Shown: positions 25,616-58,359, numbered from the stretch's first letter. The stretch is DNA of 64,000 nucleotides from an uncultured Clostridia bacterium (GCA_946185305.1 CAMHJE010000001.1:23636-87635), one strand, 5' to 3'. Notes: generated by a model not told the origin, from the sequence alone. Numbers and translations are program-made.

Positions 25616-25629
25616 GGTAATCGTTTACC
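25616..25629. promoter_or_regulatory. LacI-type operator, site A
   Basis: ggtaatCGtttacc (reverse complement ggtaaaCGattacc). It overlaps the predicted +1 of the GH10 promoter. Confidence 0.5.
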
Positions 25630-25632
25630 TAT

Positions 25633-25660
25633 ATTGTAACCGATCCTGCCGATTTGTCAA
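25633..25660 (-). promoter_or_regulatory. GH10-like gene promoter
   Basis: Minus strand TTGACA-16 nt-TACAAT. Confidence 0.5.
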
Positions 25661-25690
25661 GGGAAATGTAAAGAAAACGAAAAATGCCGA

Positions 25691-25719
25691 TTGACTTTAC
25701 ACCGCCGCTGTGCTACCAT
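25691..25719 (+). promoter_or_regulatory. ygjV/yesL promoter
   Basis: TTGACT-17 nt-TACCAT. Confidence 0.45.
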
Positions 25720-25746
25720 CGGAAAAAACGAAAGGGGGCAGCCTGC

Positions 25747-26274
25747 ATGGAGAAAACGATTGCGCAGGTCATTGGGTTCGTCGCAGTCGCGGAAAACCTG
25801 CTGATCTATCTCAGCAACCGCCGCGAGCGGATCCTGCTGTGGAAGGCCGTTTCGGACGCGCTGTGGCTTATGAACTATCTGCTCATGGGCGGCTTCACGG
25901 GCGCGATGCTCAACGCCGTGGCGCTTGTGCGCGAGGGCGTGTTTTCGCTGCGCGGCAAGGCGAAATGGGCGGACGGCAAGTGGATCCCGGCGCTGTTTCT
26001 GGCGCTCACATGGCTGTCGCCCGCGCTCGAATGGATCAACGGTGGCGCGTTTACGTGGCTGCCGCTGCTGCCCGCGTTCGGCAGCATGATCTTTGTGCTC
26101 GGCTTTTATGTGAAAAATACCGTGTTCACCAAGGCGTCGTCACTTGTCGGCAACGCGCTGTGGCTGACCTATGCGATCCTGATCGGCAATACTGCCGGGC
26201 TCGTCGGCAATGTGCTGATGCTCGCCTCCGCGCTGATCGGGCTGTGGCGGGAAAGGCAGGCGAAGCACGGATGA
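25747..26274 (+). CDS. YgjV-family inner membrane protein
   Basis: MEKTIAQVIGFVAVAENLLIYLSNRRERILLWK... with multiple TM helices. Start set at the internal ATG, which has a GGGGG RBS. Confidence 0.6.
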   Translation: MEKTIAQVIGFVAVAENLLIYLSNRRERILLWKAVSDALWLMNYLLMGGFTGAMLNAVALVREGVFSLRGKAKWADGKWIPALFLALTWLSPALEWINGGAFTWLPLLPAFGSMIFVLGFYVKNTVFTKASSLVGNALWLTYAILIGNTAGLVGNVLMLASALIGLWRERQAKHG

Positions 26275-26918
26275 AGAAAAAGCCGATGTCCGAAAAGCGC
26301 CTCCGTATTTTGGCGCGGCTCTCGAAAATCACCGATTACCTGCTTGTCGGGCTGCTGTCGTTCGTTATATCGCTGCCTGTCCTCACGCTCGGTGCGGCGG
26401 CCGCCGCGTTTTATGCCGTGGGAAAGCAGCTGCAAAGCGACGAGGGCGGCTCGGCATATCGCACTTACTTTGCGGCGTTCAGGCAATACGGAAAGCGCGC
26501 GACGCTGCTGTGGCTGCCGTTTTTGGGCGTTTTGCTGCTGCTGACGTTCAACGCGCTGTTCTATTGGTACATGGCCGCAAACGATGCGGCGTGGGCGCAG
26601 TTCGGCCTCGGCGTCTGCGCGGCGGTCGCGCTGCTGCTGTCGCTTGCCGGTGCGTTTCTGTTTCCGCTGCTTGTGACAGAGCCGGACAAGGGCGGGCTCG
26701 ACCTTGCCAAGCGTTCGCTGTACCTTGCGGCGCGGGAGCCGCTTTTGTGGGCGGGCAAGACTGCCGTGCAGCTTGCGGCGCTCGCCGCCGTCTGGTTCGT
26801 GCCGTTTCTGATCGTGTTTATCCCCGGTCTGCTGCTTTTTTGGGACACATTTTGTTTTTCCCGTGCCTATGGCAAACGATTTCCGAAAATCAAGGAAGAA
26901 TCGGCAAAACGCGATTGA
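26271..26918 (+). CDS. YesL/DUF624-family membrane protein
   Basis: ITDYLLVGLLSFVISLPVLTLGAAAAAFYAV is a DUF624-like N-terminus. ATGA start/stop overlap with ygjV. Confidence 0.65.
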   Translation: MKKKPMSEKRLRILARLSKITDYLLVGLLSFVISLPVLTLGAAAAAFYAVGKQLQSDEGGSAYRTYFAAFRQYGKRATLLWLPFLGVLLLLTFNALFYWYMAANDAAWAQFGLGVCAAVALLLSLAGAFLFPLLVTEPDKGGLDLAKRSLYLAAREPLLWAGKTAVQLAALAAVWFVPFLIVFIPGLLLFWDTFCFSRAYGKRFPKIKEESAKRD

Positions 26919-26943
26919 CAGACGCCCCTTTTACGTGTAAAAT
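26915..26943 (+). promoter_or_regulatory. Promoter of the 17-gene glycan-utilisation unit
   Basis: TTGACA-17 nt-TAAAAT. The -35 box overlaps the yesL stop codon. Confidence 0.6.
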
Positions 26944-26951
26944 ATACGTTA

Positions 26952-26965
26952 AGAAAACGTTTACT
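26952..26965. promoter_or_regulatory. LacI-type operator, site B
   Basis: agaaaaCGtttact, starting about 2 nt after the predicted +1. Confidence 0.5.
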
Positions 26966-26979
26966 CAAACTTTAGCATG

Positions 26980-26993
26980 AGAAAACGATTACC
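26980..26993. promoter_or_regulatory. LacI-type operator, site C
   Basis: agaaaaCGattacc, centred 28 bp downstream of site B. Confidence 0.5.
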
Positions 26994-27061
26994 TATACAC
27001 AACCGGTCGGAGGGGCATACCCCTTCGGCATTGCGACGGATCACGGCTTGGGACGGTACGT

Positions 27062-29980
27062 ATGAAGAAGAAACAGGGAATGGCTTGGATACTGGCGATC
27101 TGCCTGCTGCTCGGCGAGCTTGTCGGCCTTGTGCCGGTGCCTGCGGCGGCGGACGTCTCCGCGTCCGCAGAACCGAAAGCAGCGGCCACGGCGGCGTATG
27201 CGGCGTATTTGGCGGCGCACGGCGATCCGGCGGCAGCGGCGGCAAACGATACGATCACAATTCCGGCAGCCTCGGTCAACGAGACCGAAGCCTATCTTGC
27301 CGAGTATCAAGGCAAAAGCTCTGTCCTTGTCTGGGACGAGCAGGGCACGGCGTATTCGTGGACGTTCACCGCAAAAACCGCGGGGTACTACCGCCTTGCG
27401 CTGACCTACGCGGGCGTGGCAAACAAACAGTATGATATCACGCTCGACGTGCTGCTGGACGGCGCCGCGCCGTACCCGAACACGCTCGGCGTCAAGCTGC
27501 ATCGTCTGTTCCTCGACGAGACCTACGCCGGCCCCGGCGAGAACGTCTTTTTGCAGAACCTGAACGGCGACGAGATCATGCCCGCGCTGTCCGAGCAGTA
27601 CGCATGGCAGACGCAGTATATTTACGATTCGCAGGGCGCGTATCCCGCGCCGCTGTATTACTGGCTCGACACGGGCGAGCATACGATCACCCTTACCTTA
27701 AAGGACGAAGCCTTTGCGCTCGATGCAATCACCTTTCTGAACCTCCCCAAGGAGCCGACCTACGCCGAAACGCTCACCGCCCATGCAGACGCGGCGGACA
27801 CAAGCGGCGTTCTTCTGACCTATGAGGCCGAAAAAAGCTATCTCAAAAACGACGTGACGCTGTTCGCCACCTACGACACCGCGTACAGCCACGTCACGCC
27901 GGCGAGCGCCGAAAACATTCTCTACAACACCATCGGCAAGAACACATGGAAAAAGGTCGGGCAGATGATCACGTGGGAAATCGACGTGCCCCAGACCGGC
28001 TGGTACTGCGTCGCGTGCAAGGTCAAGCAGTATGACAAGAGCAATGCGTATTCGACGCGCGCGTTCACGATCGACGGCGAGCCGATCTGCGTCGAGGCCG
28101 ACGCGCAAAAGTTCCCGTATAAAACCGGCTGGTACGTGCAGCGGCTCGAAATCGAGGGCGGCGAGCCGATCAAGGTATATCTCGAGGCGGGCCGCCATGT
28201 GCTCGGCATGCGCGCGGTGCTGGACGAGGAGCTGGCAAGCGTGTTGCGCGATGTGAACGGCACCACGGAAAAGCTGCAGGGATGGTACCGCGAAATCATC
28301 AAAATCACCGGCTTCAATGCCGATGCCGAGCGCATCACAATCGACGCCAACCGCGATTTCAGCCTCGAAAAGAACGTGCCGGGTCTGCTCGAGGGTCTTG
28401 CCGCCTGCAAGGCCGAGCTGGACGGCTACTATCAGCGGATCGACGAAATCTCCGAAATCTCCACCGCGAGCGCGTCGATCCTGTCCGAGACCTCGTCGCT
28501 GCTCGGCAAGCTCATCAAGCGCCCCAAAAGGATCGTGCCGCAGATCGAAACGCTGCGTTCGGATATTTCGAGCCTTGCGACATGGGTCATCGACATGCAG
28601 ACGCAGCCGCTGCAGATGGATAAGCTGTATATCTACTCGCCGGACGTGAAAACGCCGCAGGTGGACAACAATATCTTCGTGCAGATCTGGTACCGCTTTT
28701 TGATGTTCCTGCACTCGTTCAAGGGCGGCACGACCGCCGTGACCGGCACCGTGCAGACCGCCGCCGACGCCCCGACGATCCGCGTGTGGATCTCCACCGC
28801 CGACATCACGACCACCGGCGCATCCTCCGGCCGCGATCAGGCGATCATTCTGAAGCGACTGATCGACGAATCCTTCACGGCCTCGACCGGCATCAACGTG
28901 GAGGTCAGCCTCGTTTCCGGCTCCGATACGCTTGTGCAGGCGGTGCTGGCAGGCGAGGGGCCGGATGTGGCGCTGTTCACCTCGACCGATACGCCGGTCA
29001 ACCTTGCGATGCGCGGCGCGGTGCTGGATCTGAGCCGGTTCGACGGTTTTGCCGAAACGACAAAGCAGTTTACCGAAAGCGCGGTCACGCCGTTTTGGTA
29101 TCAGGGCGGGTGCTACGCGTTCCCCGAAACGCAGAATTTCAACGTCCTGTTCTACCGCACCGATATCTACGAGGAATTGGGACTGAAGCCCCCGACGACG
29201 TGGGACGAGTTCTATGAACAGGTGATCTACCTTTCGAACCACAACTACATGGTCGGCGTGCCGCAGAACCAGAACATCTTTGAATCGTTCCTCTACCAGT
29301 CCGGCACAACGTTCTATACGCCCGACTTTTCGGCTTCCACGTTCGACACCGAGGAAGCCTTGGAATCGTTCCAAAGCTGGACGGGGCTGTACACCAAATA
29401 CAGCCTACCGCTGATCTTCGACTTTTTCAATCGCTTCCGGAGCGGCGAAATGGCGCTCGCCATCGAGCCGTATAACCAGGTCAACTACCTCTATTCCGCG
29501 GCGCCGGAGCTGGACGGCCTGTGGCAGATCGCGCCGCTGCCCGCCACGGTGCGCGCCGACGGCACGGTGAGCGGCGTCGAAACCTGCTCGTCCACCGGGT
29601 GCATCGCCTTAAAGGGCACGACCCACCCGGAGGAAGCCTATCAATTCCTGTCGTGGTGGGTATCCGCCAAGACGCAGGGCGATTTCGGCACGCAGGTGGA
29701 GCAGACGCTCGGCGTTGCCGCGCGATACGGCACGGCGAACTTAGAGGCGTTCGAGCGCATCCCGTGGAACCCGGAGCAGGCCGCGGTCATCCGGCAGCAG
29801 CGGCAGAACACCGTCGCGGTCGAGCAGATCCCCGGCAATTACTACATCGCCCGCAACCTCTCGTTTGCGTTCCGCGCGGTCGTGTACAACAAGGCGAACC
29901 TAAGAGAAACGCTCTATAAGTACAATATCGAGATCAATAAAGAACTGGCCCGCAAGCAAAAGGAATTCAGCTATCGGTAA
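27062..29980 (+). CDS. Giant extracellular solute-binding protein: two CBM-like beta-sandwich regions, a helical linker and a family-1 SBP domain
   Basis: Signal or anchor peptide. CBM-like stretches (TAKTAGYYRLALTYAG, QTGWYCVACKVKQ). The C-terminal ~400 aa or so look like a CUT1 sugar SBP (GPDVALFTSTD, PFWYQGGCYAFPET). Confidence 0.7.
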   Translation: MKKKQGMAWILAICLLLGELVGLVPVPAAADVSASAEPKAAATAAYAAYLAAHGDPAAAAANDTITIPAASVNETEAYLAEYQGKSSVLVWDEQGTAYSWTFTAKTAGYYRLALTYAGVANKQYDITLDVLLDGAAPYPNTLGVKLHRLFLDETYAGPGENVFLQNLNGDEIMPALSEQYAWQTQYIYDSQGAYPAPLYYWLDTGEHTITLTLKDEAFALDAITFLNLPKEPTYAETLTAHADAADTSGVLLTYEAEKSYLKNDVTLFATYDTAYSHVTPASAENILYNTIGKNTWKKVGQMITWEIDVPQTGWYCVACKVKQYDKSNAYSTRAFTIDGEPICVEADAQKFPYKTGWYVQRLEIEGGEPIKVYLEAGRHVLGMRAVLDEELASVLRDVNGTTEKLQGWYREIIKITGFNADAERITIDANRDFSLEKNVPGLLEGLAACKAELDGYYQRIDEISEISTASASILSETSSLLGKLIKRPKRIVPQIETLRSDISSLATWVIDMQTQPLQMDKLYIYSPDVKTPQVDNNIFVQIWYRFLMFLHSFKGGTTAVTGTVQTAADAPTIRVWISTADITTTGASSGRDQAIILKRLIDESFTASTGINVEVSLVSGSDTLVQAVLAGEGPDVALFTSTDTPVNLAMRGAVLDLSRFDGFAETTKQFTESAVTPFWYQGGCYAFPETQNFNVLFYRTDIYEELGLKPPTTWDEFYEQVIYLSNHNYMVGVPQNQNIFESFLYQSGTTFYTPDFSASTFDTEEALESFQSWTGLYTKYSLPLIFDFFNRFRSGEMALAIEPYNQVNYLYSAAPELDGLWQIAPLPATVRADGTVSGVETCSSTGCIALKGTTHPEEAYQFLSWWVSAKTQGDFGTQVEQTLGVAARYGTANLEAFERIPWNPEQAAVIRQQRQNTVAVEQIPGNYYIARNLSFAFRAVVYNKANLRETLYKYNIEINKELARKQKEFSYR

Positions 29981-29991
29981 AGGAGGTCGCC

Positions 29992-30912: not shown

Positions 30913-30925
30913 GGGGGTGAAGCGT

Positions 30926-31819: not shown

Positions 31820-31831
31820 GGGGGTGCGACG

Positions 31832-33911: not shown

Positions 33912-33925
33912 GGGAGGGGGACGGC

Positions 33926-36232: not shown

Positions 36233-36244
36233 CGGGAGGTGCGT

Positions 36245-37165: not shown

Positions 37166-37179
37166 AGGGAGGTCAGAGT

Positions 37180-38160: not shown

Positions 38161-38204
38161 GACGCGAAAACCATTTCACCATACAAAGAACAGGAGGAAC
38201 TACT

Positions 38205-39644: not shown

Positions 39645-39662
39645 AGGAAAGGGAAAACAACC

Positions 39663-45150: not shown

Positions 45151-45153
45151 GTT

Positions 45154-48316: not shown

Positions 48317-48337
48317 AAAACACAGATTTGACGCATG

Positions 48338-48351
48338 AGTAAACGTTTTCA
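48338..48351. promoter_or_regulatory. LacI-type operator, site D
   Basis: agtaaaCGttttca, upstream of the -35 box of the lipoprotein promoter. Confidence 0.45.
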
Positions 48352-48370
48352 AATTTTTTCCGAAAACCAC

Positions 48371-48399
48371 TTGCATCTATGTAAAGATTATGTTATCAT
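48371..48399 (+). promoter_or_regulatory. Promoter of the triple-repeat lipoprotein gene
   Basis: TTGCAT-17 nt-TATCAT with an extended -10 (TGTTATCAT). Confidence 0.55.
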
Positions 48400-48406
48400 G
48401 CAGTTG

Positions 48407-48420
48407 GGAAAAGGTTTACT
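48407..48420. promoter_or_regulatory. Degenerate operator-like site E
   Basis: ggaaaaGGtttact. The central CG is replaced by GG. It overlaps the predicted +1. Confidence 0.3.
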
Positions 48421-48460
48421 CAAAATTTACCCCTACAAAAATACAAACAGGAGAGAACGT

Positions 48461-50335
48461 ATGAAAAAGGTATCTTGGTTATTGGCAGTTTTGATGCTGC
48501 TTTCGGTCGTTTTCGGCTGTACGGCGACCCCGGCGCCCGCCGCGTCCACGCCGACCGAAGCGCCCGCGGCAACCGTGACCGAAGCGCCCAAGGCAACGGA
48601 AGCGCCCGCACCCACCGAGGCGCCCGCGCCGGAACCCGAGGCCGAACCGGTCAAGGAGCCCGCTGTGTACAACAGCGTCGAGGGCTTTCATGACGATACG
48701 GCGACCGAAGGCGTCTGGCAGTATTATTACAGCATCGACGACGGCGCGACCGTGACCGATCCCTGCGAGGATTACACCGATTACGGCGGATACGGCGGCT
48801 GGCATCCTTGGGAAGGCTCCTATGTGGGCGTCGGCTTCAACCATGACGTCGAAGGGTATCTGGAGTTCAACACCGATCAGCGCGGCGGTTTGATGGGCGT
48901 TCTCGTCTTTGAAGCGCCCGCGGACGGCAAGTATGTCGTGACTGCGCAGATCTGGAACCCGTGGGAGCAGGATCTGGACAGCTACACCGTCAAGAACGAC
49001 AAGTTTGAGACCGTTGTGGAGCAGTCGATGGACGAGCTTGTGGACGTGTACGGCTTCATTACCCCGACCGATGTGGAGATGAAGACCGGCGAAAAGTTGT
49101 ACTTCATGTGCAACTCCAAGAGCGAATCCTGGGCAAGCGCCTATTCCAACGTCACGATCTACTATGAGCCGCAGGACGAATCCGTCTATGTGATTCCGGA
49201 AGTCGTGATGCCGGTTAAGGAAGTGGTCGGCGTCGATCCGGACTTCGAGCAGGAAGCCAAGTGGAACGCGGTAAAGGACTTCGACCGCACCGCTGCGGAC
49301 GGCTCCAACACGCCTTGGGTCTATGCAACGACTGTGGCATGGGGCGAGTTTGCGATCAACGAAAAGTATGAGGAGCAGGATTGGGACGGCGACGGCAAGG
49401 CCGACGCGAACCAGTGGTACTCCGCCGACGGCACCGGCATGGGCTTTAACTTCAACGAAGCCTACGGCGGCAACTATCTCGAACTGAACACGACGGACTA
49501 CGGCGCGACCGTTTCCGCGCTCGGTTTCAAGGCGCCCGCTGCCGGCACCTACGCGTTCAACGGCTATGTTATGAATATCTGGGGCGCGAATGCGAACATG
49601 CTCCGCGTCTATAAGGGCAGCGAGTATTACAAGGACTTCGCCGCCAAGGAATACAAGGAAAAGCCCAACGAGTTTGCGTTCACCGCAAAGCTCGAGGAGG
49701 GCGAGATCGTTTGGCTGTTCGTCGATTCCGAGGGCGGCTGGGTCTCCTCCGCACTGTCCGTGTTCGTCAATGAGACCGAGGATGCGCCGGTCGTCGAGGT
49801 GAATCTGCTGCAGGACGCCAAGTGGGCGGCCTACCGCGACTTTGACCGTACCGCGGCGGACGGCTCCAACACGCCGTGGATCTACGCCACGACCGTGGCA
49901 TGGGGCGAGTTTACGACCAACGTGAAGTATGACGAGCCCGACTGGGACGGCGACGGCGCACCGAACGCGAACCAGTGGTATTCCGAGGACGGCACCGGCA
50001 TGGGCATTTCGTTCTCCTACGATGAGGGCTACCTCGAGCTGAACACGACTGACTACGGCGCGACCGTGTCCTGCCTCGGCTTCAAGGCTCCGGCCGCAGG
50101 CACTTACGCGTTCAACGGCTATGTCCGCAACCCGTGGGGCCAGAGCATGAACCTGCTCCGCGTCTATAAGAACGCCGATTACTTCGCCGACTTCCCGGCG
50201 GGCGAGTTCGTCGATGCGCCGAACGCGTTCGACTTTGAGGTCGAGCTGGCCGAAGGCGACATCGTTTGGGTGTTCGTCGATTCCAACGGCGGCTGGGTCA
50301 GCGCGGCGGTCGCTCTGTTCGTCAACGAGAAGTAA
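48461..50335 (+). CDS. Surface lipoprotein with a Pro/Thr/Ala/Glu linker and three tandem CBM-like domains of about 185 aa
   Basis: Lipobox VVFGCT. Repeats 2 and 3 are nearly collinear (AKW..DFDRTAADGSNTPW.YATTVAWGEF...GFKAPAAGTYAFNGYV...). Repeat 1 is divergent (FEAPADGKYVVTAQIW). Confidence 0.75.
   Translation: MKKVSWLLAVLMLLSVVFGCTATPAPAASTPTEAPAATVTEAPKATEAPAPTEAPAPEPEAEPVKEPAVYNSVEGFHDDTATEGVWQYYYSIDDGATVTDPCEDYTDYGGYGGWHPWEGSYVGVGFNHDVEGYLEFNTDQRGGLMGVLVFEAPADGKYVVTAQIWNPWEQDLDSYTVKNDKFETVVEQSMDELVDVYGFITPTDVEMKTGEKLYFMCNSKSESWASAYSNVTIYYEPQDESVYVIPEVVMPVKEVVGVDPDFEQEAKWNAVKDFDRTAADGSNTPWVYATTVAWGEFAINEKYEEQDWDGDGKADANQWYSADGTGMGFNFNEAYGGNYLELNTTDYGATVSALGFKAPAAGTYAFNGYVMNIWGANANMLRVYKGSEYYKDFAAKEYKEKPNEFAFTAKLEEGEIVWLFVDSEGGWVSSALSVFVNETEDAPVVEVNLLQDAKWAAYRDFDRTAADGSNTPWIYATTVAWGEFTTNVKYDEPDWDGDGAPNANQWYSEDGTGMGISFSYDEGYLELNTTDYGATVSCLGFKAPAAGTYAFNGYVRNPWGQSMNLLRVYKNADYFADFPAGEFVDAPNAFDFEVELAEGDIVWVFVDSNGGWVSAAVALFVNEK
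49256..50332 (+). repeat. Tandem in-frame duplication with a period of 561 bp, inside the lipoprotein gene
   Basis: gccaagtgg... begins at both 49256 and 49817. Long identical runs include gacggctccaacacgcc and gtggcatggggcgagttt. Confidence 0.8.
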
Positions 50336-50364
50336 TTCCAACCGTACAGCATAAGTCAGGTTGC

Positions 50365-50403
50365 GGAGGTTATGAGGAGGCAGCCTCCTCGTAACCTCCT
50401 TTT
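50365..50403 (+). terminator. Strong intrinsic terminator after the lipoprotein gene
   Basis: GGAGGTTATGAGGAGG-cag-CCTCCTCGTAACCTCC, a 16-bp stem with one G.U pair, followed by TTTT. Confidence 0.8.
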
Positions 50404-50424
50404 CCGTTCAAAAGGGAGAGAACG

Positions 50425-53400
50425 ATGAAACCATTTCGCAAGCAGGAACAGCATTTCACGGCGCTCCGCACGCTGTTGGAGCGCGGCGTGTATCACGCGG
50501 CGGCTCCGCTTTCCATGACGGCCTTGATCACGTCCGATCCCGTGCCGTATGAAAACAGGGCGACAGAGACGATGACGCCGCTTGCGCCCGGCGATCATTG
50601 GGGCGATCTGTTCGACTGCGCATGGGTGCACTTTACCGCGCCGCTGCCCGCCGCATTTCCGCCGGAGGCCGCGCTGTGCCGGCAAAAGCATTGGGCGCTG
50701 CTTGTCGATCTGTCCGCCGAGGGACTGGTGTATAACGCGCTCAGCGAGCCGGTGCAGGGCTTAACGAGTGCCACGTCGCGCAACGAGTTCCCGCTCGGGC
50801 TTTGGGGCAAGCGCACGGTCGAGCTGGCCGATACGATCCAAAACGGACGCATCGATTTTTGGGCGGACTTCACCTGCTGCGACGTGGAGGGACAGTACCG
50901 CAACGGCGGCCGCGTCAAGGAGGCGTGTACCGCTTGGGTGGACGACCTCTGCCGCGACGCGTTCTATGACTGGCAGATCGTCCAAAGCCTGTTTGTCGGG
51001 CTGATGGAAAACGGCGATCCCTACGGCGAGGAGGTCGGCGCGGTTTTGGAGCGCGCGGCGGCGGTTCTGGAGAATGCGCTCGGGCTGACCTATTCCGAAG
51101 CGGAAGGCATGCAGTCCGGCACCACGCCGTTTTTCGGCCGCGACGCATACTTTACCGACGAAACGCCGAGCGCCGTCGAAGCCGCGGGCGAGCGCCTTTC
51201 GATCTGGCCGGACGCGGAAACCGAACCGACCAAAAGGACGCAGCTTGTTTTGCAGCAGGACGCGCTGACCGAGGTGCGCCGGATTCTTGCCGAGGTGCTG
51301 GACAGAAAAAACGAGCATCCCGATTACGTGTATTCCGCCATCGGGCACAGTCATCTCGATTTGCTGTTCCTTTGGACGGAGCGCGAGACATACCGCAAGA
51401 GCGCGCGCACGATTGCGAACGTGCTGCGGATCATGGATATTGATCCGAACTATCAGTTTACGCTGAGCCAGGCGCCGGTCTACCGGTGGCTGAAGGCGCA
51501 GTATCCGTCCCTGTACCGGCGGCTTTTACGCCGCGTGGAGGAGGGGCGGCTCGAAATCGTCGGCGCGCTGTATATCGAGTGCGACACGAACCTGCCCTGC
51601 GGCGAATCGCTCGCACGGCAGCTGCTGTACGGCAAACGCTTTTTCCGCGAAGAATTTCATAAAGATATGCGCGTTTGCTTTTTGCCCGACGTTTTCGGCT
51701 ATTCGGCGGCGCTGCCGCAGCTGTTGAAGCTCGCGGATGTGCCCTACTTTACGACCAACAAGCTTTCCATGAACGACACGAACCGTTTCCCGCGCTATAC
51801 GTTCTGGTGGCACGGGCTCGACGGGACGCGCGTTCTGACGCACATGCCGCCCGAAAACAGCTACACCTCGGCGGTCGTGCCGCAGATGGCGCTGTACGGC
51901 TATTACCACGACACCGACAAGGACCTTTGCCCGCGCGGACTGGAGCTGTTCGGCCTCGGCGACGGCGGCGGCGGGCCGGGCTTGGAGCATGTCGAGCGGC
52001 GCAGGCGGACGAGAAACCTCAAGGGCTGTCCGCCGTTTGAGGACGAGTTTGTCGTGGACTTTTTCGACCGGATCGCCAAGGACGCCGACCGCTATCGCGC
52101 ATGGCACGGCGAGCTGTACTTTGAACGGCATCAGGGCACCTATACCTCGATTGCGCGGCAAAAGCGGTGGAACCGCACGCTCGAAACCGACCTGCATGCG
52201 TTGGAGCTTGCGGCGTCGCTTGCGCTCGGTACGGACGGTTACGAGTACCCGGCGGCATGGCTGAAAAGCGCGTGGGAGGATGTGCTGTTATACCAGTTCC
52301 ACGACTGTCTGCCCGGTTCCGCGATCCCGCCTGTGTATGAGCAGACGCAGGCGCGCTATGCCGAGCTGCATGCGCAGGCCGAGGGGAAGCTGCAGGAAGC
52401 CCTTGCTGCGCTGACCCAGCACATGGGTAGGGCCGGTGCGCATGGCACGGTCGTGCTGAATCCGTCGCCGTTTGCGCGAACCGAGCGGATCGGCAGCGGC
52501 TTTGCGCCGGTCACGCTGCCGCCGTGCAGCGCGGTGTGGCTCGATGGCGAGATCCCCCAAGCGCGCACAACCGTGTCGGCACAGCAGCCGCCGTACACGC
52601 TCGAAAACGAATACCTTTGCGTGACCGTTCATCCGGACGGCACGATCACCGACCTATACGATAAGCGCACGGGCAGACGGCCTTTGGCGAACGATAAAGC
52701 CGGCAACGTTTTGACGCTCTACCCCGACGAGCTGACGCATTGGGACATCAACAAGGCGTATCTGCATGAACAGGGGCAGCGGGCAATCTGCACGGCCTGC
52801 GAACGGTTTTCAACCGAGACCGCCGAGGGCGTGCGTCTAACTTATGCGGTCGGCGAGCACTCGACGCTTTGGCAGACGATCACGCTCGAAAAGGGCAGCG
52901 CACGACTTACATTCGACTGTCATGCGGATTGGCAGGAGGAATACCAAATGCTGCGCGTTTCGTTCCCGACCTCGATCGTCACGGATCACGCAACGTGCGA
53001 AATCCAGTTCGGCCACCTCGACCGTCCGACGCATCACAATACGTCGTGGGACGAGGCGAAGTTTGAGGTCTGCGCGCAGCGCTGGGTCGATATGACCGAC
53101 GCGGCGGGCGGCGCGGCGCTGCTGGCGGACTGCAAATACGGCTATAAGGTGTGGGACAACGTGCTCGACCTTTGCCTGCTGCGCAGTCAGAACTGTCCCG
53201 CCGAGCACGGCGATATCGGCGAACATGCGTTCACCTACGCGCTGCTGCCGCACGACGGCGATGCGTATGACGGCGGCGTGATCGCGGAGGGCTACCGGCT
53301 GACCTATCCGCTGCCGCACCTAAGCGTCGTCGGCGCGGGCGGCGAAACGGCGCTGTGTCCGTTCCGGGTCACGGCGGGCACGGCGGTGCTCGAAACCGTC

Positions 53401-53616
53401 AAAAAGGCCGAGGACAGCGATCAACTCGTCCTGCGGCTCTATGAGGCCAAGGGCGGCGCGACGACCGCGCGGCTTGCGCTTGCGGGTTATGCGCCGGCGG
53501 CGATCTGCAATCTGTTGGAGGAGCCGACGGGAGAAGCGTATACGTGGGAAAACGGCGAGCTGGTTCTGCCGTTCCATCCGTTTGAAATCAAATCCATTCT
53601 GGTACAACGAACCTGA
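50425..53616 (+). CDS. GH38 alpha-mannosidase (MngB-like, cytoplasmic)
   Basis: AIGHSHLDLLFLW metal-binding N-terminal motif. 1063 aa with a GH38 domain order. Confidence 0.88.
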   Translation: MKPFRKQEQHFTALRTLLERGVYHAAAPLSMTALITSDPVPYENRATETMTPLAPGDHWGDLFDCAWVHFTAPLPAAFPPEAALCRQKHWALLVDLSAEGLVYNALSEPVQGLTSATSRNEFPLGLWGKRTVELADTIQNGRIDFWADFTCCDVEGQYRNGGRVKEACTAWVDDLCRDAFYDWQIVQSLFVGLMENGDPYGEEVGAVLERAAAVLENALGLTYSEAEGMQSGTTPFFGRDAYFTDETPSAVEAAGERLSIWPDAETEPTKRTQLVLQQDALTEVRRILAEVLDRKNEHPDYVYSAIGHSHLDLLFLWTERETYRKSARTIANVLRIMDIDPNYQFTLSQAPVYRWLKAQYPSLYRRLLRRVEEGRLEIVGALYIECDTNLPCGESLARQLLYGKRFFREEFHKDMRVCFLPDVFGYSAALPQLLKLADVPYFTTNKLSMNDTNRFPRYTFWWHGLDGTRVLTHMPPENSYTSAVVPQMALYGYYHDTDKDLCPRGLELFGLGDGGGGPGLEHVERRRRTRNLKGCPPFEDEFVVDFFDRIAKDADRYRAWHGELYFERHQGTYTSIARQKRWNRTLETDLHALELAASLALGTDGYEYPAAWLKSAWEDVLLYQFHDCLPGSAIPPVYEQTQARYAELHAQAEGKLQEALAALTQHMGRAGAHGTVVLNPSPFARTERIGSGFAPVTLPPCSAVWLDGEIPQARTTVSAQQPPYTLENEYLCVTVHPDGTITDLYDKRTGRRPLANDKAGNVLTLYPDELTHWDINKAYLHEQGQRAICTACERFSTETAEGVRLTYAVGEHSTLWQTITLEKGSARLTFDCHADWQEEYQMLRVSFPTSIVTDHATCEIQFGHLDRPTHHNTSWDEAKFEVCAQRWVDMTDAAGGAALLADCKYGYKVWDNVLDLCLLRSQNCPAEHGDIGEHAFTYALLPHDGDAYDGGVIAEGYRLTYPLPHLSVVGAGGETALCPFRVTAGTAVLETVKKAEDSDQLVLRLYEAKGGATTARLALAGYAPAAICNLLEEPTGEAYTWENGELVLPFHPFEIKSILVQRT

Positions 53617-53643
53617 CCGCTGATGCGGCACGAAAGGAGCTTT

Positions 53644-54327
53644 ATGAAACGTTCCCAAATCAATCAAATCATCCGCGAAACGGAAGCGCTTTTGGCGGCG
53701 CATCAGATCCGCCTTGCGCCGTTTTTCAACTGGACGCCCGAGGAGTGGGCCAAGAAGGGTCACGAATGTGACGAGATCCGGGACAACGCGCTCGGCTGGG
53801 ACGTGACGGACTTCGGCGCGGGCGATTTCGACAATATCGGCCTGACCGCGCTGACGATCCGCAACGGCAACGCCAAGGAGCCGGGCAAGTATCCGAAGCC
53901 CTATGCCGAAAAAATCCTGATCGCGCGCGAGGGACAGGTCACACCGCTGCACTTCCATTGGTACAAGATGGAGGACATCATCAACCGCGGCGGCGGGGTG
54001 CTGATGATGCAGCTGTATAACGCGACCGAAAACGAGGAACTCGACCTTGTGAACCCGGTTGAGATCGTGTCCGACGGCGTGAAGCTGACGATCCCCGCAG
54101 GCGGGTATCTCGAACTGCAGCCGGGGCAGAGCGTGACCTATACGCAATATCTCTATCACGCGTTCTGGGGCAAAAAGGGCACCGGCGACGTGATCGTGGG
54201 CGAGGTTTCGATGTGCAACGACGACAACACCGACAATCGCTTTTACGACGTGCCGGGGCGCTTCCCGGCCATCGACGAGGACGAAGCACCTTACCGCCTG
54301 CTGTGCAACGAGTACCCGAACGCATGA
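53644..54327 (+). CDS. D-lyxose/D-mannose ketol-isomerase (cupin)
   Basis: TPLHFHWYKMEDIINRGGG cupin metal motif. AAAGGAG RBS before MKRSQINQ. Confidence 0.8.
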   Translation: MKRSQINQIIRETEALLAAHQIRLAPFFNWTPEEWAKKGHECDEIRDNALGWDVTDFGAGDFDNIGLTALTIRNGNAKEPGKYPKPYAEKILIAREGQVTPLHFHWYKMEDIINRGGGVLMMQLYNATENEELDLVNPVEIVSDGVKLTIPAGGYLELQPGQSVTYTQYLYHAFWGKKGTGDVIVGEVSMCNDDNTDNRFYDVPGRFPAIDEDEAPYRLLCNEYPNA

Positions 54328-55388
54328 GACCGTGGTTTGACGCGCATGTGCATGTTCTCGGCGGCAGGCCCGATGCACTCGATGAGTTGCGGCGGATCGA
54401 GACCGGCTACGGCTATACCGACGCCAATCTGCTTTCGGTCGAGGGCATGGACGATGCGGCGCAGAACGCGCTTGCGATCGCGTGGAAGCTGGACGGCGAG
54501 CGGGAGGCGGCCGAAACGGACGGCGTTTCGCATCGGTATGCGCTCGGCGGGCTGCACCATCGGTATGCGTATGATTACCGAAAAGAGCTCGAAACGCTGT
54601 GGGCGCTCGGCTTCGACGGGCTGAAAATGATCGAAAACAAGCCGACCGAGCGGCGGCGGTGGGGGATCGCGCAGAACGATCCCGCACTCGATCCGCTGTA
54701 TGCCTATGCGGAGGAAAACGATATCCCGCTGCTGATCCACGTCAACGATCCACGCGAATTTTGGGACGAAAAACGCTGTCCGGCATGGGCACGGGACGCG
54801 GGTTACTTTTACGACGGCAGTTTCGTTTCGTTCGAGCAGATCCTTTCGGAATCGCTCGATATGCTGAAAAAGCACCCGCGCCTTCGGATCTGCTTTGCGC
54901 ATTTTCTGTTCCTTTCGGACGATGAGCCTGCGCTGCGCGACATTCTGCAAGCGTACCCGAACGTGTATCTCGACGTGACCGCGGGCACCGAAATGTACCC
55001 GAACTTTGCGCGCGATCCCGCCGTGTGGCGGCGGTTTTTCGGGGATTTTGCGGATCGCATCCTATACGGCACCGACAACTGCGCGCCGATGAACGCGGAG
55101 GACAAGCGCATTGCGGACGTATTGAACAACCTCGAACGTCGGTTCTTTTTATCGCGCGATCCGATCCCGCTTTGGGAGGATACGGTGGAAGGGCTCGGCC
55201 TTGCACCGGACGGCGTACAGGCGCTGCTTTACGGCAACGCAAAGCGATTTTTCGGGGCGAAACCGCGCCCGGTGAACCGCGTTATCGCCTGTCGTTACTT
55301 AAGGGAACGGCTATCCGATAAAAGTTTGCAGCTTACCGAGCGGGAGTACGAAATCACGACAAAAACTCTTGCGAAATGCTTGCAATGA
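54324..55388 (+). CDS. Amidohydrolase_2-type metal-dependent TIM-barrel hydrolase
   Basis: WFDAHVHVLGG at the N-terminus, LLIHVND and YGTDN. ATGA overlap with the isomerase stop. Confidence 0.7.
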   Translation: MRPWFDAHVHVLGGRPDALDELRRIETGYGYTDANLLSVEGMDDAAQNALAIAWKLDGEREAAETDGVSHRYALGGLHHRYAYDYRKELETLWALGFDGLKMIENKPTERRRWGIAQNDPALDPLYAYAEENDIPLLIHVNDPREFWDEKRCPAWARDAGYFYDGSFVSFEQILSESLDMLKKHPRLRICFAHFLFLSDDEPALRDILQAYPNVYLDVTAGTEMYPNFARDPAVWRRFFGDFADRILYGTDNCAPMNAEDKRIADVLNNLERRFFLSRDPIPLWEDTVEGLGLAPDGVQALLYGNAKRFFGAKPRPVNRVIACRYLRERLSDKSLQLTEREYEITTKTLAKCLQ

Positions 55389-55408
55389 AAGAGCATTTCC
55401 GATATAAT
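55380..55408 (+). promoter_or_regulatory. Promoter of the LacI-family regulator
   Basis: TTGCAA-17 nt-TATAAT. The -35 box lies in the last codons of the amidohydrolase gene. Confidence 0.55.
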
Positions 55409-55440
55409 TTCATCATTAGTACCAGAGGACGTTAAGGCGT

Positions 55441-56445
55441 ATGCAGAAGAAAATTTCGATCAAGGATATTTCCGAACAGGCCGACGTGTCGATTGCGACG
55501 GTGTCGCGCGTGATCAATAAAAACGGCCGCTACTCCAAGGAAACGGAGGAGCGGGTGCTGCGCGTGATCCGGGAAAACAACTATCAGCCGAACCTGATTG
55601 CAAAGGGGCTTCGGGTGCAGCGCATGAAGAATGTGGGCATACTTGTCCCGGATATCAAGAACGAATTTTTCACCAAGCTCGTTTATGAGATCGAGCGCAA
55701 CCTCTTTGCCGCAGGCTATGAAACCTTCGTCTGCAACACCGACGAGGACGAATCCATCGAGCGCCAGCATCTGGCCATGATGCAGATGCAGAGCGTTTGC
55801 GGACTGATCTTCATCGCTGGCAGCGCGCCCGCCGCCTCCGGTCGCAAGGAGCATATCCCGACCGTCTATATCGACCGCATCCCGGCCGAGCCCGGCCAAA
55901 ACGACTGCATGATCACCAGCGACAACGTCGAGGGCGGCTACCTTGCAACCAAGGAGCTTTTGGAGCAGGGCGCGCGCCGCATCCTGTTTATGACAAGCCG
56001 CCGCCGCGTCTCCTGCTATGCCGAACGCTTCGAGGGCTATTGCAAGGCGCTCCGGGAATTCGGGCTAAAAGAAACCGACCGCATGGTGGTCGCGCTGAAC
56101 TCCGTTCGCTATCAGGACGCTTACGACAGCATGAACGCATTGTTGGACGAGGGCGCTTCGTTCGACGGCGTGTTCGCCGGGTCCGACTGGCTCGCGCTCG
56201 GCTGTTACCGCGCGCTGTGCGAGCACGGCAAGCGCATCCCGGCGGATGTGAAGCTGGCGGGCTACGACGATATCTCGATCACCGCGTTCAACGCCATTCC
56301 GATCACGACCGTGCATCAAAAGGTGGACGAAATGGGGCGCCTCGCCGCGCAGCAGCTGATCGCCGTCATCGAGGGCGAGTCGGTGGAGAAGCGCCTTTCG
56401 CACGTTCCCGTTACCCTTGTGCCACGTGCGTCCACGCGCGGCTGA
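55441..56445 (+). CDS. LacI-family transcriptional regulator
   Basis: HTH IKDISEQADVSIATVSRVINKNG plus a periplasmic-binding-protein-like sugar-binding core. Confidence 0.92.
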   Translation: MQKKISIKDISEQADVSIATVSRVINKNGRYSKETEERVLRVIRENNYQPNLIAKGLRVQRMKNVGILVPDIKNEFFTKLVYEIERNLFAAGYETFVCNTDEDESIERQHLAMMQMQSVCGLIFIAGSAPAASGRKEHIPTVYIDRIPAEPGQNDCMITSDNVEGGYLATKELLEQGARRILFMTSRRRVSCYAERFEGYCKALREFGLKETDRMVVALNSVRYQDAYDSMNALLDEGASFDGVFAGSDWLALGCYRALCEHGKRIPADVKLAGYDDISITAFNAIPITTVHQKVDEMGRLAAQQLIAVIEGESVEKRLSHVPVTLVPRASTRG

Positions 56446-56510
56446 CCTTTCCTGCCCGCAGCGGCGGCCGACCACACCAAGACAGCTTTTCCGCGGGAAA
56501 AGCCGCGTTG

Positions 56511-56524
56511 GGAAAACGATTAAC
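56511..56524. promoter_or_regulatory. LacI-type operator-like site F
   Basis: ggaaaaCGattaac, immediately 5' of the ROK gene RBS (CCGGAGG). Confidence 0.4.
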
Positions 56525-56534
56525 CGGAGGAACT

Positions 56535-57449
56535 ATGGAAGCCATCGAAGTTTTGCTCAGCATGGATATCGGCGGCACGAACTGCCGCATGGGACTGTGC
56601 AGCAGGGACGGCACGCTGTATGAAAAGGAGATCGTCTCGACCGAGACGATGGCGGAGGAGGGCTTTGCGGATGCGCTTGTGCGCCGCATGCGCGCCTTTT
56701 TGCAGCGGGCGGGCAAGGCATACGCGGTGCGCGGCATAGCCATGGGCTTTCCCGCCACGATCGACAAGGCGCGGCGCGTCGTGCTGCAGGCGCCGGCCAT
56801 CGCGGGCATGGAGCACTTTGCGGTCTGCGATCTGCTCGAAGGCGCGTTCGGCCTGCCCGTGTTTTTGGAAAAGGATGTGAACCTGCTGTTCGAGTACGAC
56901 CGCAAGAACCTGCACCTGCCGGACGAGGGCTTGGCCATCGGCATTTATTTCGGCACCGGCATCGGCAACGCGATCTTCTATAACGGTAAACCGTTCCTCG
57001 GCGCGAACGGCGTCGCAGGCGAGCTCGGTCACATTCCACAATGGAAGAACACGCGTGAATGCGGCTGCGGCAACATCGGCTGCCTCGAACCGTTCGGCGG
57101 CGGCAAGCGATTGGCCGAGCTGTGCAGAACGACCCATCCCGACGCCAATATCCGCACGATCTACCGCGACTGTGCGGGCGATCCCGACGTATGGGGGCAG
57201 GTGGACGCGATGGCGATAGCGGTGGCGACCGAGGTCAATATCCTCGACCCGGCTTATGTCGTGCTCGGCGGGGGCCTTTTGCAGATGGAGGGCTTCCCGA
57301 TCCCGTATTTCGAGCAAAAAATCAGGGCCTACGTGCGTAAGCCCTATCCCGAACAAAATTTGCGGCTCGTCTATTCCCGTCCCGATCAGGAGAACGGCAT
57401 CATCGGCGCCGCGTTCTACGGCTGGGAGCAGCTCAACCGTCAGGCCTGA
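56535..57449 (+). CDS. ROK-family sugar kinase
   Basis: LSMDIGGTNCRMG ATP-binding motif and the ROK zinc motif CGCGNIGCLE. Start at MEAIEVLL. Confidence 0.85.
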   Translation: MEAIEVLLSMDIGGTNCRMGLCSRDGTLYEKEIVSTETMAEEGFADALVRRMRAFLQRAGKAYAVRGIAMGFPATIDKARRVVLQAPAIAGMEHFAVCDLLEGAFGLPVFLEKDVNLLFEYDRKNLHLPDEGLAIGIYFGTGIGNAIFYNGKPFLGANGVAGELGHIPQWKNTRECGCGNIGCLEPFGGGKRLAELCRTTHPDANIRTIYRDCAGDPDVWGQVDAMAIAVATEVNILDPAYVVLGGGLLQMEGFPIPYFEQKIRAYVRKPYPEQNLRLVYSRPDQENGIIGAAFYGWEQLNRQA

Positions 57450-58333
57450 GCCGCCCGGATCGCTTCGGCAAGCCGCGCGTTCCACGCCTGCGCCTGTTCC
57501 TTTGTGGCGGCGGGCAGCTCTTTGAGCGTGTAGCTTCGTCCGACGCCCGCCCACTTTTGCACGCCGATGGTATGATACGGCAGGATCTCGTATCGCTCGA
57601 TGTTCGGATGCGCGGCGATCACCCGCCCCGCGAACGCAAAGTGCGCGTCGGTATCGTTGACGCCCGGGATGATCGGCAGCCGCAGCCAGATCGGTTTTTG
57701 CACCGCCGAGAGCGTTTCAAGCGTCGTCTGCCAGCGCGCAAAGTCCCCGCCGGTGTACGCTTTCAGCGTTTCGGCGTCGGGCGCTTTGCAATCGAGCAGC
57801 CACAGATCGACGAGCGGCAGCAGCGTTTCGAGCGTTTCGGGCGTGATACAGCCGTTCGTTTCGAGCGCGGTGTGCAGCCCTTCGGCCTTGCATTGTTCCA
57901 AACACTCACGCAAAAAGGCGGCTTGCACGGTCGGCTCCCCGCCCGAAAACGTCACGCCGCCGCCGCTTTGCACATAGTAGGCGCGGTCGCGCAGCACGAC
58001 GGCAAGAACCTCGTCCGCGGTCATTTCCCGCCCTGTGATTTTCAGCGCGTTTTGCGGGCAGACCTTGATGCACGCGCCGCATAGGGTACACTTATTTTGC
58101 AGCACGGTATGCGTCCCGTCCGGAAACCGGTGCACCCCGGCAGGGCAGAGGCGGGCGCATCGACGGCACCCGATACAGAGCGCGGGCAGCAGCTCGATTT
58201 CCGGGCGCGGCGAAAACGATTCGGGGTTGTGACACCAAATACAGCGCAGGCTGCAGCCCTTCAAAAAGACGGTCGTGCGGATGCCCGGCCCGTCGTGATA
58301 CGCACAGCGCGAAATATCGAATACGATTCCCAT
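57440..58333 (-). CDS. Glycyl-radical enzyme activating enzyme (radical SAM, with a two-cluster ferredoxin insert)
   Basis: CSLRCIWCHNPE (CX3CX2C), CIGCRRCARLCP and CTLCGACIKVCP. 297 aa. The 3' end overlaps the ROK gene 3' end by 10 bp. Confidence 0.92.
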   Translation of the reverse strand: MGIVFDISRCAYHDGPGIRTTVFLKGCSLRCIWCHNPESFSPRPEIELLPALCIGCRRCARLCPAGVHRFPDGTHTVLQNKCTLCGACIKVCPQNALKITGREMTADEVLAVVLRDRAYYVQSGGGVTFSGGEPTVQAAFLRECLEQCKAEGLHTALETNGCITPETLETLLPLVDLWLLDCKAPDAETLKAYTGGDFARWQTTLETLSAVQKPIWLRLPIIPGVNDTDAHFAFAGRVIAAHPNIERYEILPYHTIGVQKWAGVGRSYTLKELPAATKEQAQAWNARLAEAIRAAQA

Positions 58334-58345
58334 AACTTGACTCCG

Positions 58346-58359
58346 AGAAAACGATTACA
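58346..58359. promoter_or_regulatory. LacI-type operator, site G
   Basis: agaaaaCGattaca, 13/14 identical to site C. It overlaps the predicted +1 of the activase promoter. Confidence 0.5.

Follow-up and report, generated by a model that had tools for sequence, protein, structure and literature searches.

The window, a 64-kb stretch of DNA from an uncultured Clostridia bacterium, was mapped to 45 genes, and intergenic DNA makes up 2,770 nt of it (4.3%; 50% GC against about 60%). Seven 14-bp palindromic sites were proposed in a preliminary description as operators of one LacI-family repressor encoded in the same stretch. All seven were found in the sequence as described, and all seven lie outside the mapped genes.

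The first proposed target is a gene for a GH10 glycoside hydrolase on the minus strand (24348–25598; Pfam PF00331, E=5.7e-30). Its promoter, TTGACA-16-TACAAT (25633–25660, minus strand), agrees with the consensus at 11 of 12 positions, and the −35 and −10 boxes are kept in two related loci, L020 and L021. The operator O-GH10, ATGGGTAATCGTTTACCTAT (25613–25632, core 25616–25629), begins 3 nt past the −10 box and covers the predicted +1; it scored 30.1 bits with the Bacilli matrix introduced below, and its right half-site is retained in the same two loci. On the plus strand, a promoter TTGACA-17-TAAAAT (26915–26943; 11 of 12 consensus matches, kept in six related loci) precedes an ABC/glycosidase unit at 27062–48316. 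O1-ABC (26949–26968, core 26952–26965; 28.2 bits) starts 8 nt past the −10 box, and an equivalent was found at the same place in six of the seven relatives (L020, L021, L023, L024, L025 and L026). O2-ABC (26977–26996, core 26980–26993; 26.5 bits) lies 28 bp downstream of O1-ABC in a 5′-UTR insertion missing from all relatives, and is thus species-specific. The unit had been counted as 17 genes, but our gene map places 14 downstream of 26915, in an order kept in L020–L026. By their Pfam assignments they encode a 972-aa solute-binding lipoprotein, two plus two ABC permeases, an NHL/TPR protein, Yip1, DUF5696 and a second solute-binding protein, followed by a GH42M-like protein, GH106, a nucleoside-hydrolase-like protein, GH4 and a PfkB kinase.

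Two operators flank the promoter of a surface lipoprotein gene (48461–50335, plus strand), another proposed target, whose product has a signal and lipobox-like N-terminus and internal repeats in the translation; its orthologues are 64–70% identical. The promoter, TTGCAT-17-(TGt)TATCAT (48371–48399, plus strand), is of the extended −10 type. It was missed by the consensus promoter scan and was called by eye and from conservation of the block in L001–L003. The distal operator (48335–48354, core 48338–48351; 20.1 bits) lies upstream of the predicted +1, its centre about 62 bp away, and the proximal one (48404–48423, core 48407–48420; 23.4 bits), which has a GG centre, begins 7 nt past the −10 box. 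Both are kept in L001–L003 at a conserved spacing of 68–69 bp, and the proximal site, non-CG centre included, also in L030 and L032. A hairpin with a 16-bp stem and a T-run (50365–50399, plus strand), returned by the terminator scan, follows the gene as a terminator or attenuator, and the same stem forms in L001–L003 despite base differences. Beyond it lie genes for a GH38 alpha-mannosidase, a D-lyxose/mannose isomerase and an amidohydrolase (50425–55388, plus strand; Pfam and NCBIfam). The spacer after the hairpin is too short for a promoter, and these genes probably need read-through from the lipoprotein promoter.

The repressor gene follows at 55441–56445 (plus strand); as had been claimed, the Pfam scan of the 45 genes gave no other member of the LacI family. 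Its own promoter, TTGCAA-17-TATAAT (55380–55408, plus strand; 10 of 12 consensus matches), is kept in L001–L003 and has no operator; the repressor is therefore probably made constitutively. LacI proteins that act locally do not usually lack such a site, and this counts against the proposed assignment. The spacer between this gene and a ROK sugar kinase gene (56535–57449, plus strand), whose product passes the allose-kinase model (NF007251, 298 bits against a cut-off of 253), contains a weak operator (56508–56527, core 56511–56524; 14.0 bits), near which no recognisable promoter was found. A similar variant occurs in the Faecousia MAG L032 (12.3 bits); the site is weak in L001 and absent from L002 and L003.

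The last two genes considered here are divergent and encode a glycyl-radical-enzyme activase (57440–58333, minus strand; TIGR02494, 313 bits against a cut-off of 174) and a 732-aa glycyl radical enzyme, or GRE, whose subfamily is unassigned (58413–60611, plus strand). The latter was recognised by its Pfam PFL-like and Gly_radical domains and by PDB comparison, and scored under the cut-off of every matching NCBIfam GRE model. The activase promoter, TGGACA-17-(TGg)TATACT (58365–58393, minus strand), has 10 of 12 consensus matches and an upstream TG, and is kept in L001–L003. The operator in the spacer (58343–58362, core 58346–58359) begins 5 nt past its −10 box. It scored 12.4 bits with the 20-bp Bacilli matrix and 20.6 bits with a 14-bp matrix, and was absent at that place in L001–L003 and L030–L032. 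At the GH10, ABC, lipoprotein and activase promoters alike, the site thus directly follows the −10 box as described, with a gap of 3–8 bp.

The palindrome and its independent recovery

The pattern given in the preliminary description, RGWAAACGWTTACY, matched literally at three of the seven sites (25616, 26952 and 26980), where 0.01 matches would be expected. The other four are off by one or two positions, namely 48338 (...TTTTCA), 48407 (GG centre), 56511 (...TTAAC) and 58346 (...TACA). The centre-to-centre distances of 28 bp for the ABC pair and 69 bp for the lipoprotein pair were correct. The motif proper is a longer palindrome of 18–20 bp, TTGAGTAAAC followed by GTTTACTCAA, with half-sites TGRGWAAWC and GWTTWCYCA, which exceeds the 14-bp core through conserved T-G flanks. 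The T at half-site position 3 is well conserved, and 12 of 14 half-sites have R/Y, not T/A, at the outermost base of the 14-mer. The operator expected for a LacI-family protein is an even palindrome of 16–22 bp, centred on CG and situated near the genes it controls (PMC4052901). The motif found here is likewise an even palindrome and has a CG centre in six of its seven copies; the kind of motif, the placement of the sites and the apparently local regulon agree with the family-wide survey of LacI regulons.

An independent matrix was trained solely on 12 sites beside homologues of the window's LacI protein in Bacillus and Staphylococcus. With it, the seven sites were the top seven and the sole matches of at least 10 bits in the 64 kb, where 0.13 would be expected by chance. 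All seven reached 12 bits (0.06 expected per window), and five scored at least 20 bits (about 0.001 expected). Conversely, a matrix built from the window sites returned two to four matches of 17–28 bits beside the Bacillus and Staphylococcus homologues, and nothing above 17.2 bits beside LacI genes of at most 33% identity. The homologues in question are 41–52% identical to the repressor overall and have a near-identical DNA-binding domain, VS[IV]ATVSRVIN[KQ]NGR[YF]SKETEE, in Bacillus spp. and Staphylococcus simiae. Each is flanked by two to five copies of the same 20-bp palindrome, which was not seen alongside the more distant LacI genes (≤33% identity). They lie in or beside a cluster containing rpe (rpe-rpiB-PTS-lacI in L004 and L006).

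Comparison with related gut and rumen Clostridia bore out part of the proposed set: the GH10, the first ABC and both lipoprotein operators are conserved, the second ABC and the activase/GRE operators are not, and the ROK site is patchy. The conserved operators adjoin conserved −35 and −10 boxes in relatives whose proteins are 55–79% identical. An eighth strong site, overlapping a −35 box, was found just past the window on contigs of the same species, upstream of rpiB and a ribokinase-like gene. Across the window and roughly 330 kb of loci from related Clostridia, the only sites seen were those in this gene cluster. No other conserved palindrome was visible in the aligned spacers as a candidate operator for the repressor.

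The candidate binding protein

The repressor has 334 aa and the two-domain architecture of the RbsR/PurR branch (E. coli RbsR and PurR, Lactobacillales RbsR), from which its best NCBIfam and PDB matches come. Its LacI helix-turn-helix (PF00356, residues 6–51, E=2.8e-16) scored 59.5 bits against a cut-off of 27, and the effector domain, similar to periplasmic binding proteins (Peripla_BP), exceeded the cut-offs of PF00532, PF13377 and PF13407; the protein aligns over its full length to RbsR and PurR structures. It did not reach the level of an RbsR equivalog (232.3 bits against 382 for NF047341, 205.3 against 531 for NF007743). Identity with CcpA was rejected (TIGR01481, 158.6 bits against a cut-off of 442.35). 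In the hinge, the leucine of its AKGL motif aligned by phmmer with that of ARSL in PurR. PurR–DNA and LacI–DNA structures show this leucine inserted at the operator's central CpG. No CpG, which such a leucine lever should require, is present in the proximal lipoprotein operator, and this conserved exception counts against assigning the sites to this protein.

Among known systems, the RbsR/PurR branch shares the even palindromic operator with central CG, and rpiB, rpe and ribokinase-like genes belong to the core of the regulon in relatives. In the published Lactobacillales RbsR operator, gTAAAACGTTTTAc, the half-site exceeds the GTAAAC found here by one base, and in place of a single rbs operon we find a glycan-utilisation cluster of roughly 40 kb in which at least six promoters or spacers would be regulated. 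The combination of a start-site operator with auxiliary operators tens of bp away (the 28-bp ABC and 69-bp lipoprotein pairs) resembles lac O1–O3 and gal OE/OI. Unlike these pairs, those at the Bacilli homologue loci abut, 19–20 bp apart.

The CcpA–cre system is similar in several respects, with a LacI-family protein, a core G-AAA-CG-TTT-C, repressing sites over or downstream of promoters and internal roadblock sites. The seven sites could be cre bound by a CcpA encoded outside the window and serve glucose repression, with the local LacI protein binding elsewhere. The 12-bp core G-WAAA-CG-WTTW-C shares the cre geometry, and overlap of cre with other LacI operators is known (PMC2329647). Site 48338 fits the Bacillus consensus creBS, WTGNAANCGNWNNCW, but the other six do not. 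The Clostridioides difficile consensus creCD, RRGAAAANGTTTTCWW, which was derived for CcpA of that species and accepts a non-CG centre (PMC3510511) such as that of 48407, comes within two mismatches of 26952, 48338 and 48407, so cross-talk with CcpA is possible at those three, in addition to or instead of the local protein. The remaining four miss it by at least three positions. Unlike creCD, the sites have a well-kept central CG and a well-kept T at half-site position 3. With its conserved T-G flanks the motif is longer than 16 bp, and its outer R/Y is not the T/A of cre. The same 20-mer clusters beside the regulator homologues in Bacilli, whose cre differs in sequence, and within the loci scanned the sites gather round the regulator's own locus, not genome-wide as for CcpA. 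No further creCD-like match was found in the window, including upstream of its other sugar genes, and assignment to CcpA would leave the local regulator without any candidate operator. We consider CcpA unlikely to be the principal binder.

Firmicutes commonly encode LacI paralogues that resemble one another in their recognition helices and in their CG-centred palindromes (PMC2329647), and the binder might instead be a paralogous protein with a VSIATVSRVINKNGRYSKETEE-type domain encoded elsewhere. This seems quite improbable, for the motif travels with this regulator clade across Clostridia and Bacilli, and the regulator gene lies within the regulated cluster in every genome examined. Several regulator and solute-binding-protein clusters also agree exactly in the length of their longest contig, which suggests that the two genes are on one contig in at least six more assemblies. 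Most sites lie just downstream of a predicted +1 and would be transcribed, which raises the question of RNA hairpins in 5′ UTRs acting on stability or translation. The ABC 5′ UTR does fold somewhat better than shuffled sequence (z = −2.5), but its structured part lies outside the operators and is missing in relatives, and a loop-free palindrome would give only a short A/U-rich stem. Neither the distal lipoprotein site, about 62 bp before the predicted start, nor the rpiB site, over a −35 box, would be transcribed, and an Rfam search of the whole window gave no family match; a role as RNA is very improbable. Chance matches were conceivable given that intergenic DNA is richer in A+T and that the pattern was defined from the sites themselves. 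The seven matches of at least 12 bits with the independently trained matrix, against 0.02 expected in intergenic DNA, together with the cross-species conservation of sites, effectively refute this explanation. Co-occurrence in Bacilli, recovery with the Bacilli matrix and operator conservation in relatives all point, as had been proposed, to one local repressor. From these sequence comparisons we put the probability that the sites are operators of the LacI-family protein encoded at 55441–56445 at about 0.75.

Proposed regulation of the sugar genes

By analogy with the family, a dimer of the local repressor would bind the 18–20 bp palindrome, with the hinge-helix leucine inserted at the central CpG. 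Four promoters (GH10, ABC, lipoprotein and activase) have an operator over the predicted transcription start, and there the bound protein would block initiation or promoter escape. The extra operators, 28 bp downstream at the ABC promoter and 69 bp upstream at the lipoprotein promoter, may give cooperativity, and the site in the repressor–ROK spacer may serve as a roadblock. A sugar or sugar phosphate from the imported glycan would release the repressor and thereby induce the whole cluster, including rpiB and the ribokinase-like gene just past the window. Binding, repression and the effector are in this scheme predicted from sequence and family knowledge.

The radical enzyme had also been counted in the regulon. 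One operator and the synteny of the LacI, ROK, activase and GRE genes speak for this; the order LacI-(Rpe)-ROK-activase-GRE is conserved across families, from Oscillospirales to Lachnospiraceae and in an 'Anaerolineaceae' MAG. Against it, the activase/GRE operator is specific to the species, so that the one operator tying the radical enzyme to the regulon is not conserved.

Collectively, our results give good support to a mechanistically ordinary sugar regulon comprising genes for glycan uptake and breakdown. Taking the operator network together with the conserved gene order, we tentatively suggest, as a possibility still on the doubtful side, that the 732-aa GRE belongs to an anaerobic pathway, so far undescribed, that acts on a sugar or sugar phosphate derived from a glycan and recalls in spirit the anhydro-sugar-phosphate lyases YbiW/PflD, and that this pathway may be under the control of an unnamed RbsR-like clade whose operator is conserved between Clostridia and Bacilli.

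Seven intergenic palindromes and the genes beside them

The 14-bp cores of the seven sites begin at 25616, 26952, 26980, 48338, 48407, 56511 and 58346. On a map of 45 genes drawn from third-position G+C content and Pfam, 2,770 nt count as intergenic, which is 4.3% of the window (G+C about 60%), and all seven sites fall within this fraction, as the preliminary description had claimed. The degenerate pattern proposed there held only in part, since it matches literally at 25616, 26952 and 26980 (0.01 expected) but not at the other four sites. An idealised 12-mer, with two mismatches allowed at most, gave nine matches against 1.17 expected, six of them among the seven sites; the seventh, 56511, has a deviating right arm. 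Conserved T-G flanks showed that the full element is a palindrome of 18–20 bp, with half-sites TGRGWAAWC and GWTTWCYCA joined at the centre. One conserved exception is the proximal operator of the repeat lipoprotein gene (48404-48423), whose centre is not CG in any of the genomes examined (GG; CC in L002). Its equivalents lie at 3073, 3046 and 3026 in the syntenic gut/rumen Clostridia loci L001, L002 and L003, at 2567 in an Anaerotaenia-like contig (L030) and at 3451 in a Faecousia MAG (L032), and outside the centre these operators match the consensus strongly, at 18–26 bits. An Rfam search of the entire window returned no RNA family.

The genes concerned begin with a GH10 gene on the minus strand (24348-25598), followed on the plus strand by genes for YgjV-like and DUF624 membrane proteins (25747-26918), which have an operator-free promoter of their own (TTGACT-17-TACCAT, 25691-25719); in two relatives' loci, L022 and L025, the DUF624 gene has an operator upstream instead. 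A 14-gene unit identified by Pfam (27062-48316, plus strand) opens with a 972-aa solute-binding lipoprotein and also contains two ABC permease pairs, DUF5696, a second binding protein, GH106, a nucleoside-hydrolase-like gene, GH4 and a PfkB kinase. In the 972-aa protein (27062-29980) the SBP_bac_1 domain is confined to residues 596–872, and the N-terminal extension of about 590 aa had no Pfam match; gut/rumen assemblies supply over 50 clusters of proteins 55–79% identical to it. Further along the plus strand are the repeat lipoprotein (48461-50335), then GH38, a D-lyxose/mannose isomerase and an amidohydrolase (50425-55388), the LacI-family gene (55441-56445) and a ROK kinase scoring above the cut-off of the allose-kinase model (56535-57449). 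A glycyl-radical activase (57440-58333, minus) and a 732-aa glycyl radical enzyme, GRE (58413-60611, plus), come next, and two GH13-like genes (60654-63954, minus) complete the series. The gene at 55441-56445 is indeed the only LacI-family gene in the window, as first stated; the other regulators, an OmpR-type response regulator and a LysR protein, both lie in the unrelated left part.

The regulator and its probable 20-bp operator

The 334-aa local regulator was compared with named families and with homologues from one genome per species. Its nearest families are RbsR and PurR, every equivalog cut-off was missed, and its identity as CcpA was ruled out, since it scored 158.6 bits with TIGR01481, whose cut-off is 442. 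Three fully syntenic gut/rumen Clostridia MAGs encode a regulator 73–74% identical, and homologues 41–52% identical were found in three Bacillus species and Staphylococcus simiae, with a DNA-binding region nearly equal to that of the window protein (VS[IV]ATVSRVIN[KQ]NGR[YF]SKETEE). A LacI gene at the edge of L023 was set aside as an unrelated paralogue (28% identical). In the Bacilli the regulator gene lies inside or adjoins an rpe-containing cluster, which in L004 and L006 is an operon of the order rpe(AlsE-like)-rpiB-PTS(beta-glucoside-type IIABC)-lacI. Upstream of these clusters we found two to five copies of a TGAGTAAACGATTACTCA-type palindrome (L004 6636-6733, L006 6879-6911, L005 9964-11576, L008 6614-6721), some of them as abutting pairs 19–20 bp apart. 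These clusters appear to be an uncharacterised sugar system. The literature on Firmicutes rpe-rpiB-PTS operons yielded no relevant characterised regulator, and public sources give the regulator clade only generic family names.

A 20-bp matrix was built independently from 12 Bacilli sites beside homologues of the local regulator. When the window was scanned with it down to 8 bits, exactly the seven sites reached at least 10 bits, with scores of 30.1, 28.2, 26.5, 23.4, 20.1, 14.0 and 12.4; a first-order Markov null predicts 0.13 matches of at least 10 bits per 64 kb, and 0.02 of at least 12 bits in intergenic-like sequence. None of the other candidates, whether from a loose search (15342, 19851, 61666) or among the lower matches to a self-trained matrix (26871, 54713, 24414, 38165, 25751), reached 8 bits with the Bacilli matrix, and all were treated as chance; most lie in coding sequence or lack conservation. 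In the reverse direction, a matrix from the window sites scored 17–28 bits only beside the Bacilli homologues, and beside LacI genes at most 33% identical nothing exceeded 17.2 bits. Read from the sequences, these reciprocal results are the classical signature of an operator co-evolving with one regulator clade. Together with the footprinting in relatives, they support the proposal that the seven sites are LacI-type operators and that the local LacI protein is their probable binder.

The geometry of the experimentally defined CcpA motif of C. difficile, RRGAAAANGTTTTCWW (PMC3510511), equals that of the core of the window sites, and three of the seven lie within two mismatches of this motif, creCD, while the other four lie beyond. 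As cre, the CcpA site, is known to overlap operators bound by other members of the LacI family (PMC2329647), control shared between CcpA and the local regulator is a real possibility. CcpA fits poorly as the principal binder: the window motif conserves a central CG that creCD lacks, half-site position 3 is mostly T, the conserved flanks reach past 16 bp, and in the Bacilli the motif is tied to homologues of the local regulator. The canonical Bacillus cre was not enriched in the window (two matches against 0.99 expected, only one of them at one of the seven sites, 48338). We retain the local regulator as the likely main binder; the system is an unnamed RbsR-like clade of the LacI/GalR kind with a conserved 20-bp operator, and its mechanism is not new.

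Promoters, conservation and proposed mechanism

A consensus scan identified promoters for the ABC operon (TTGACA-17-TAAAAT, 26915-26943, plus strand), GH10 (TTGACA-16-TACAAT, 25660-25633, minus) and the activase (TGGACA-17-TATACT with an upstream TG, 58393-58365, minus). The lipoprotein promoter (TTGCAT-17-TGtTATCAT, 48371-48399, plus) fell under the scan threshold; relatives retain it as one block. The core begins 8 (ABC), 3 (GH10), 5 (activase) and 7 (lipoprotein) nt after the -10 box, so that the expected transcription starts are covered; the earlier claim of a site directly after the -10 at four promoters was thus right. No recognisable promoter was found at the ROK site (56511).

Conservation bore out some of these sites and not others. 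In L001-L003 the lipoprotein promoter keeps both operators, its -35 and -10 boxes and the 68–69 bp spacing, and the proximal operator also occurs in L030 and the Faecousia L032, whose regulators are 52–58% identical. Orthologues of the 972-aa binding protein (55–79% identical) were traced to seven contigs; in six, a high-scoring operator follows the conserved TTGACA-17-TAAAAT at unchanged distance, and in the seventh, where the operon has its start farther upstream, an operator likewise precedes it. The right half of the GH10 operator and its promoter are kept in both relatives having GH10. In contrast, the second ABC operator (26980) lies within an insertion found only in the window's species, and the repressor-ROK site (56511), also within an insertion, is patchy: absent from L002 and L003, weak in L001, with a similar variant in Faecousia. 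The insertions absent from the closest relatives, 26969-27061 and 56446-56510, each carry a G+C-rich hairpin, GGAGGGGCATACCCCTTC and GCTTTTCCGCGGGAAAAGC respectively. In relatives the motif also stands upstream of rpe/rpiB, of PfkB/nucleoside-hydrolase genes and of a GH13 pair. Two contigs of the window's species, 98% identical to it, carry one more strong operator, the eighth, TTGCGTAAACGATTACCTAT (25.2 bits; L029 12426-12445, L027 19416-19435). It is located about 2.5 kb to the right of window position 64000, with the GH13 pair on one side and rpiB and a ribokinase-like gene on the other, and shares sequence with what is likely the -35 box and spacer of the promoter of rpiB.

We infer a mechanism in which the repressor would bind and act sterically at the four transcription starts, auxiliary operators would add cooperativity, a roadblock might form ahead of the ROK kinase gene, and a sugar or sugar phosphate would release the repressor. 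Recurrent neighbours of the system (rpiB, rpe, ribokinase-like and allose-kinase-like genes) hint, speculatively, at a pentose or rare hexose, free or phosphorylated, as the effector. The conserved, near-consensus promoter of the repressor gene itself (TTGCAA-17-TATAAT, 55380-55408), which overlaps the end of the amidohydrolase gene, has no operator, and this suggests constitutive synthesis and not autoregulation; most local LacI regulators are autoregulated (PMC4052901). A hairpin with a 16-bp stem and a T-run (50365-50399) directly follows the lipoprotein gene and ends some 20 nt short of the ribosome-binding site of GH38; its stem is retained in L001-L003 although its bases differ. The enzymes from GH38 onward therefore probably need read-through. 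The hairpin probably serves as an attenuator or marks the 3' end of an mRNA, and would thereby keep lipoprotein levels high relative to those of the enzymes that follow.

The glycyl radical enzyme and the bounds of the proposed regulon

Inclusion of the radical enzyme in the regulon, as first proposed, is favoured by gene order, but its operator link is one species-specific site. This operator is the weakest of the seven by the independent matrix and is absent at the equivalent position in all six relatives examined, whose activase/GRE spacers hold no conserved operator. It sits precisely at the start of the conserved activase promoter, and chance is an unlikely explanation for it. The order LacI-(Rpe)-ROK-activase-GRE is kept in L001-L003, Faecousia, the Anaerotaenia-like contig and an 'Anaerolineaceae' MAG, and the GRE always adjoins a ROK kinase and this LacI clade in Oscillospirales, Lachnospiraceae and the 'Anaerolineaceae' MAG. 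L001 (12945-12958) and L002 (12941-12954) have a strong core, TGAAAACGTTTACC, 19 nt into the coding sequence of the GRE, with a degenerate version, TGAAAGCCTTTACC, at the equivalent window position (58432-58445). It could reflect operator turnover or be a by-product of the conserved peptide LKxFT; as this peptide by itself supplies both half-sites, the core is only suggestive of turnover.

None of the NCBIfam GRE models that matched the enzyme reached its cut-off, and the enzyme is roughly equidistant from diol/glycerol dehydratases, choline lyase (CutC) and YbiW. YbiW and PflD provide a precedent for sugar-phosphate-cleaving glycyl radical enzymes (PMC13450708).

In summary, a LacI-type repressor over transcription starts is a textbook mechanism, and the value of the finding is practical. 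The operator marks out a regulator clade with a conserved 20-bp site across Bacilli and Clostridia, and provides a sequence handle that would group about 30 genes of an uncultured rumen/gut Clostridia lineage as one co-regulated system, comprising two ABC importers, GH10, GH106, GH4, GH38, the repeat lipoprotein, sugar kinases, isomerases and the GRE with its activase. If the link to the GRE is true, the search for its substrate would be narrowed to a sugar or sugar phosphate made by the cluster. The main value thus lies in the bounds given to a putatively co-regulated glycan-utilisation cluster, and in a pointer to the physiological context of an unassigned glycyl radical enzyme.
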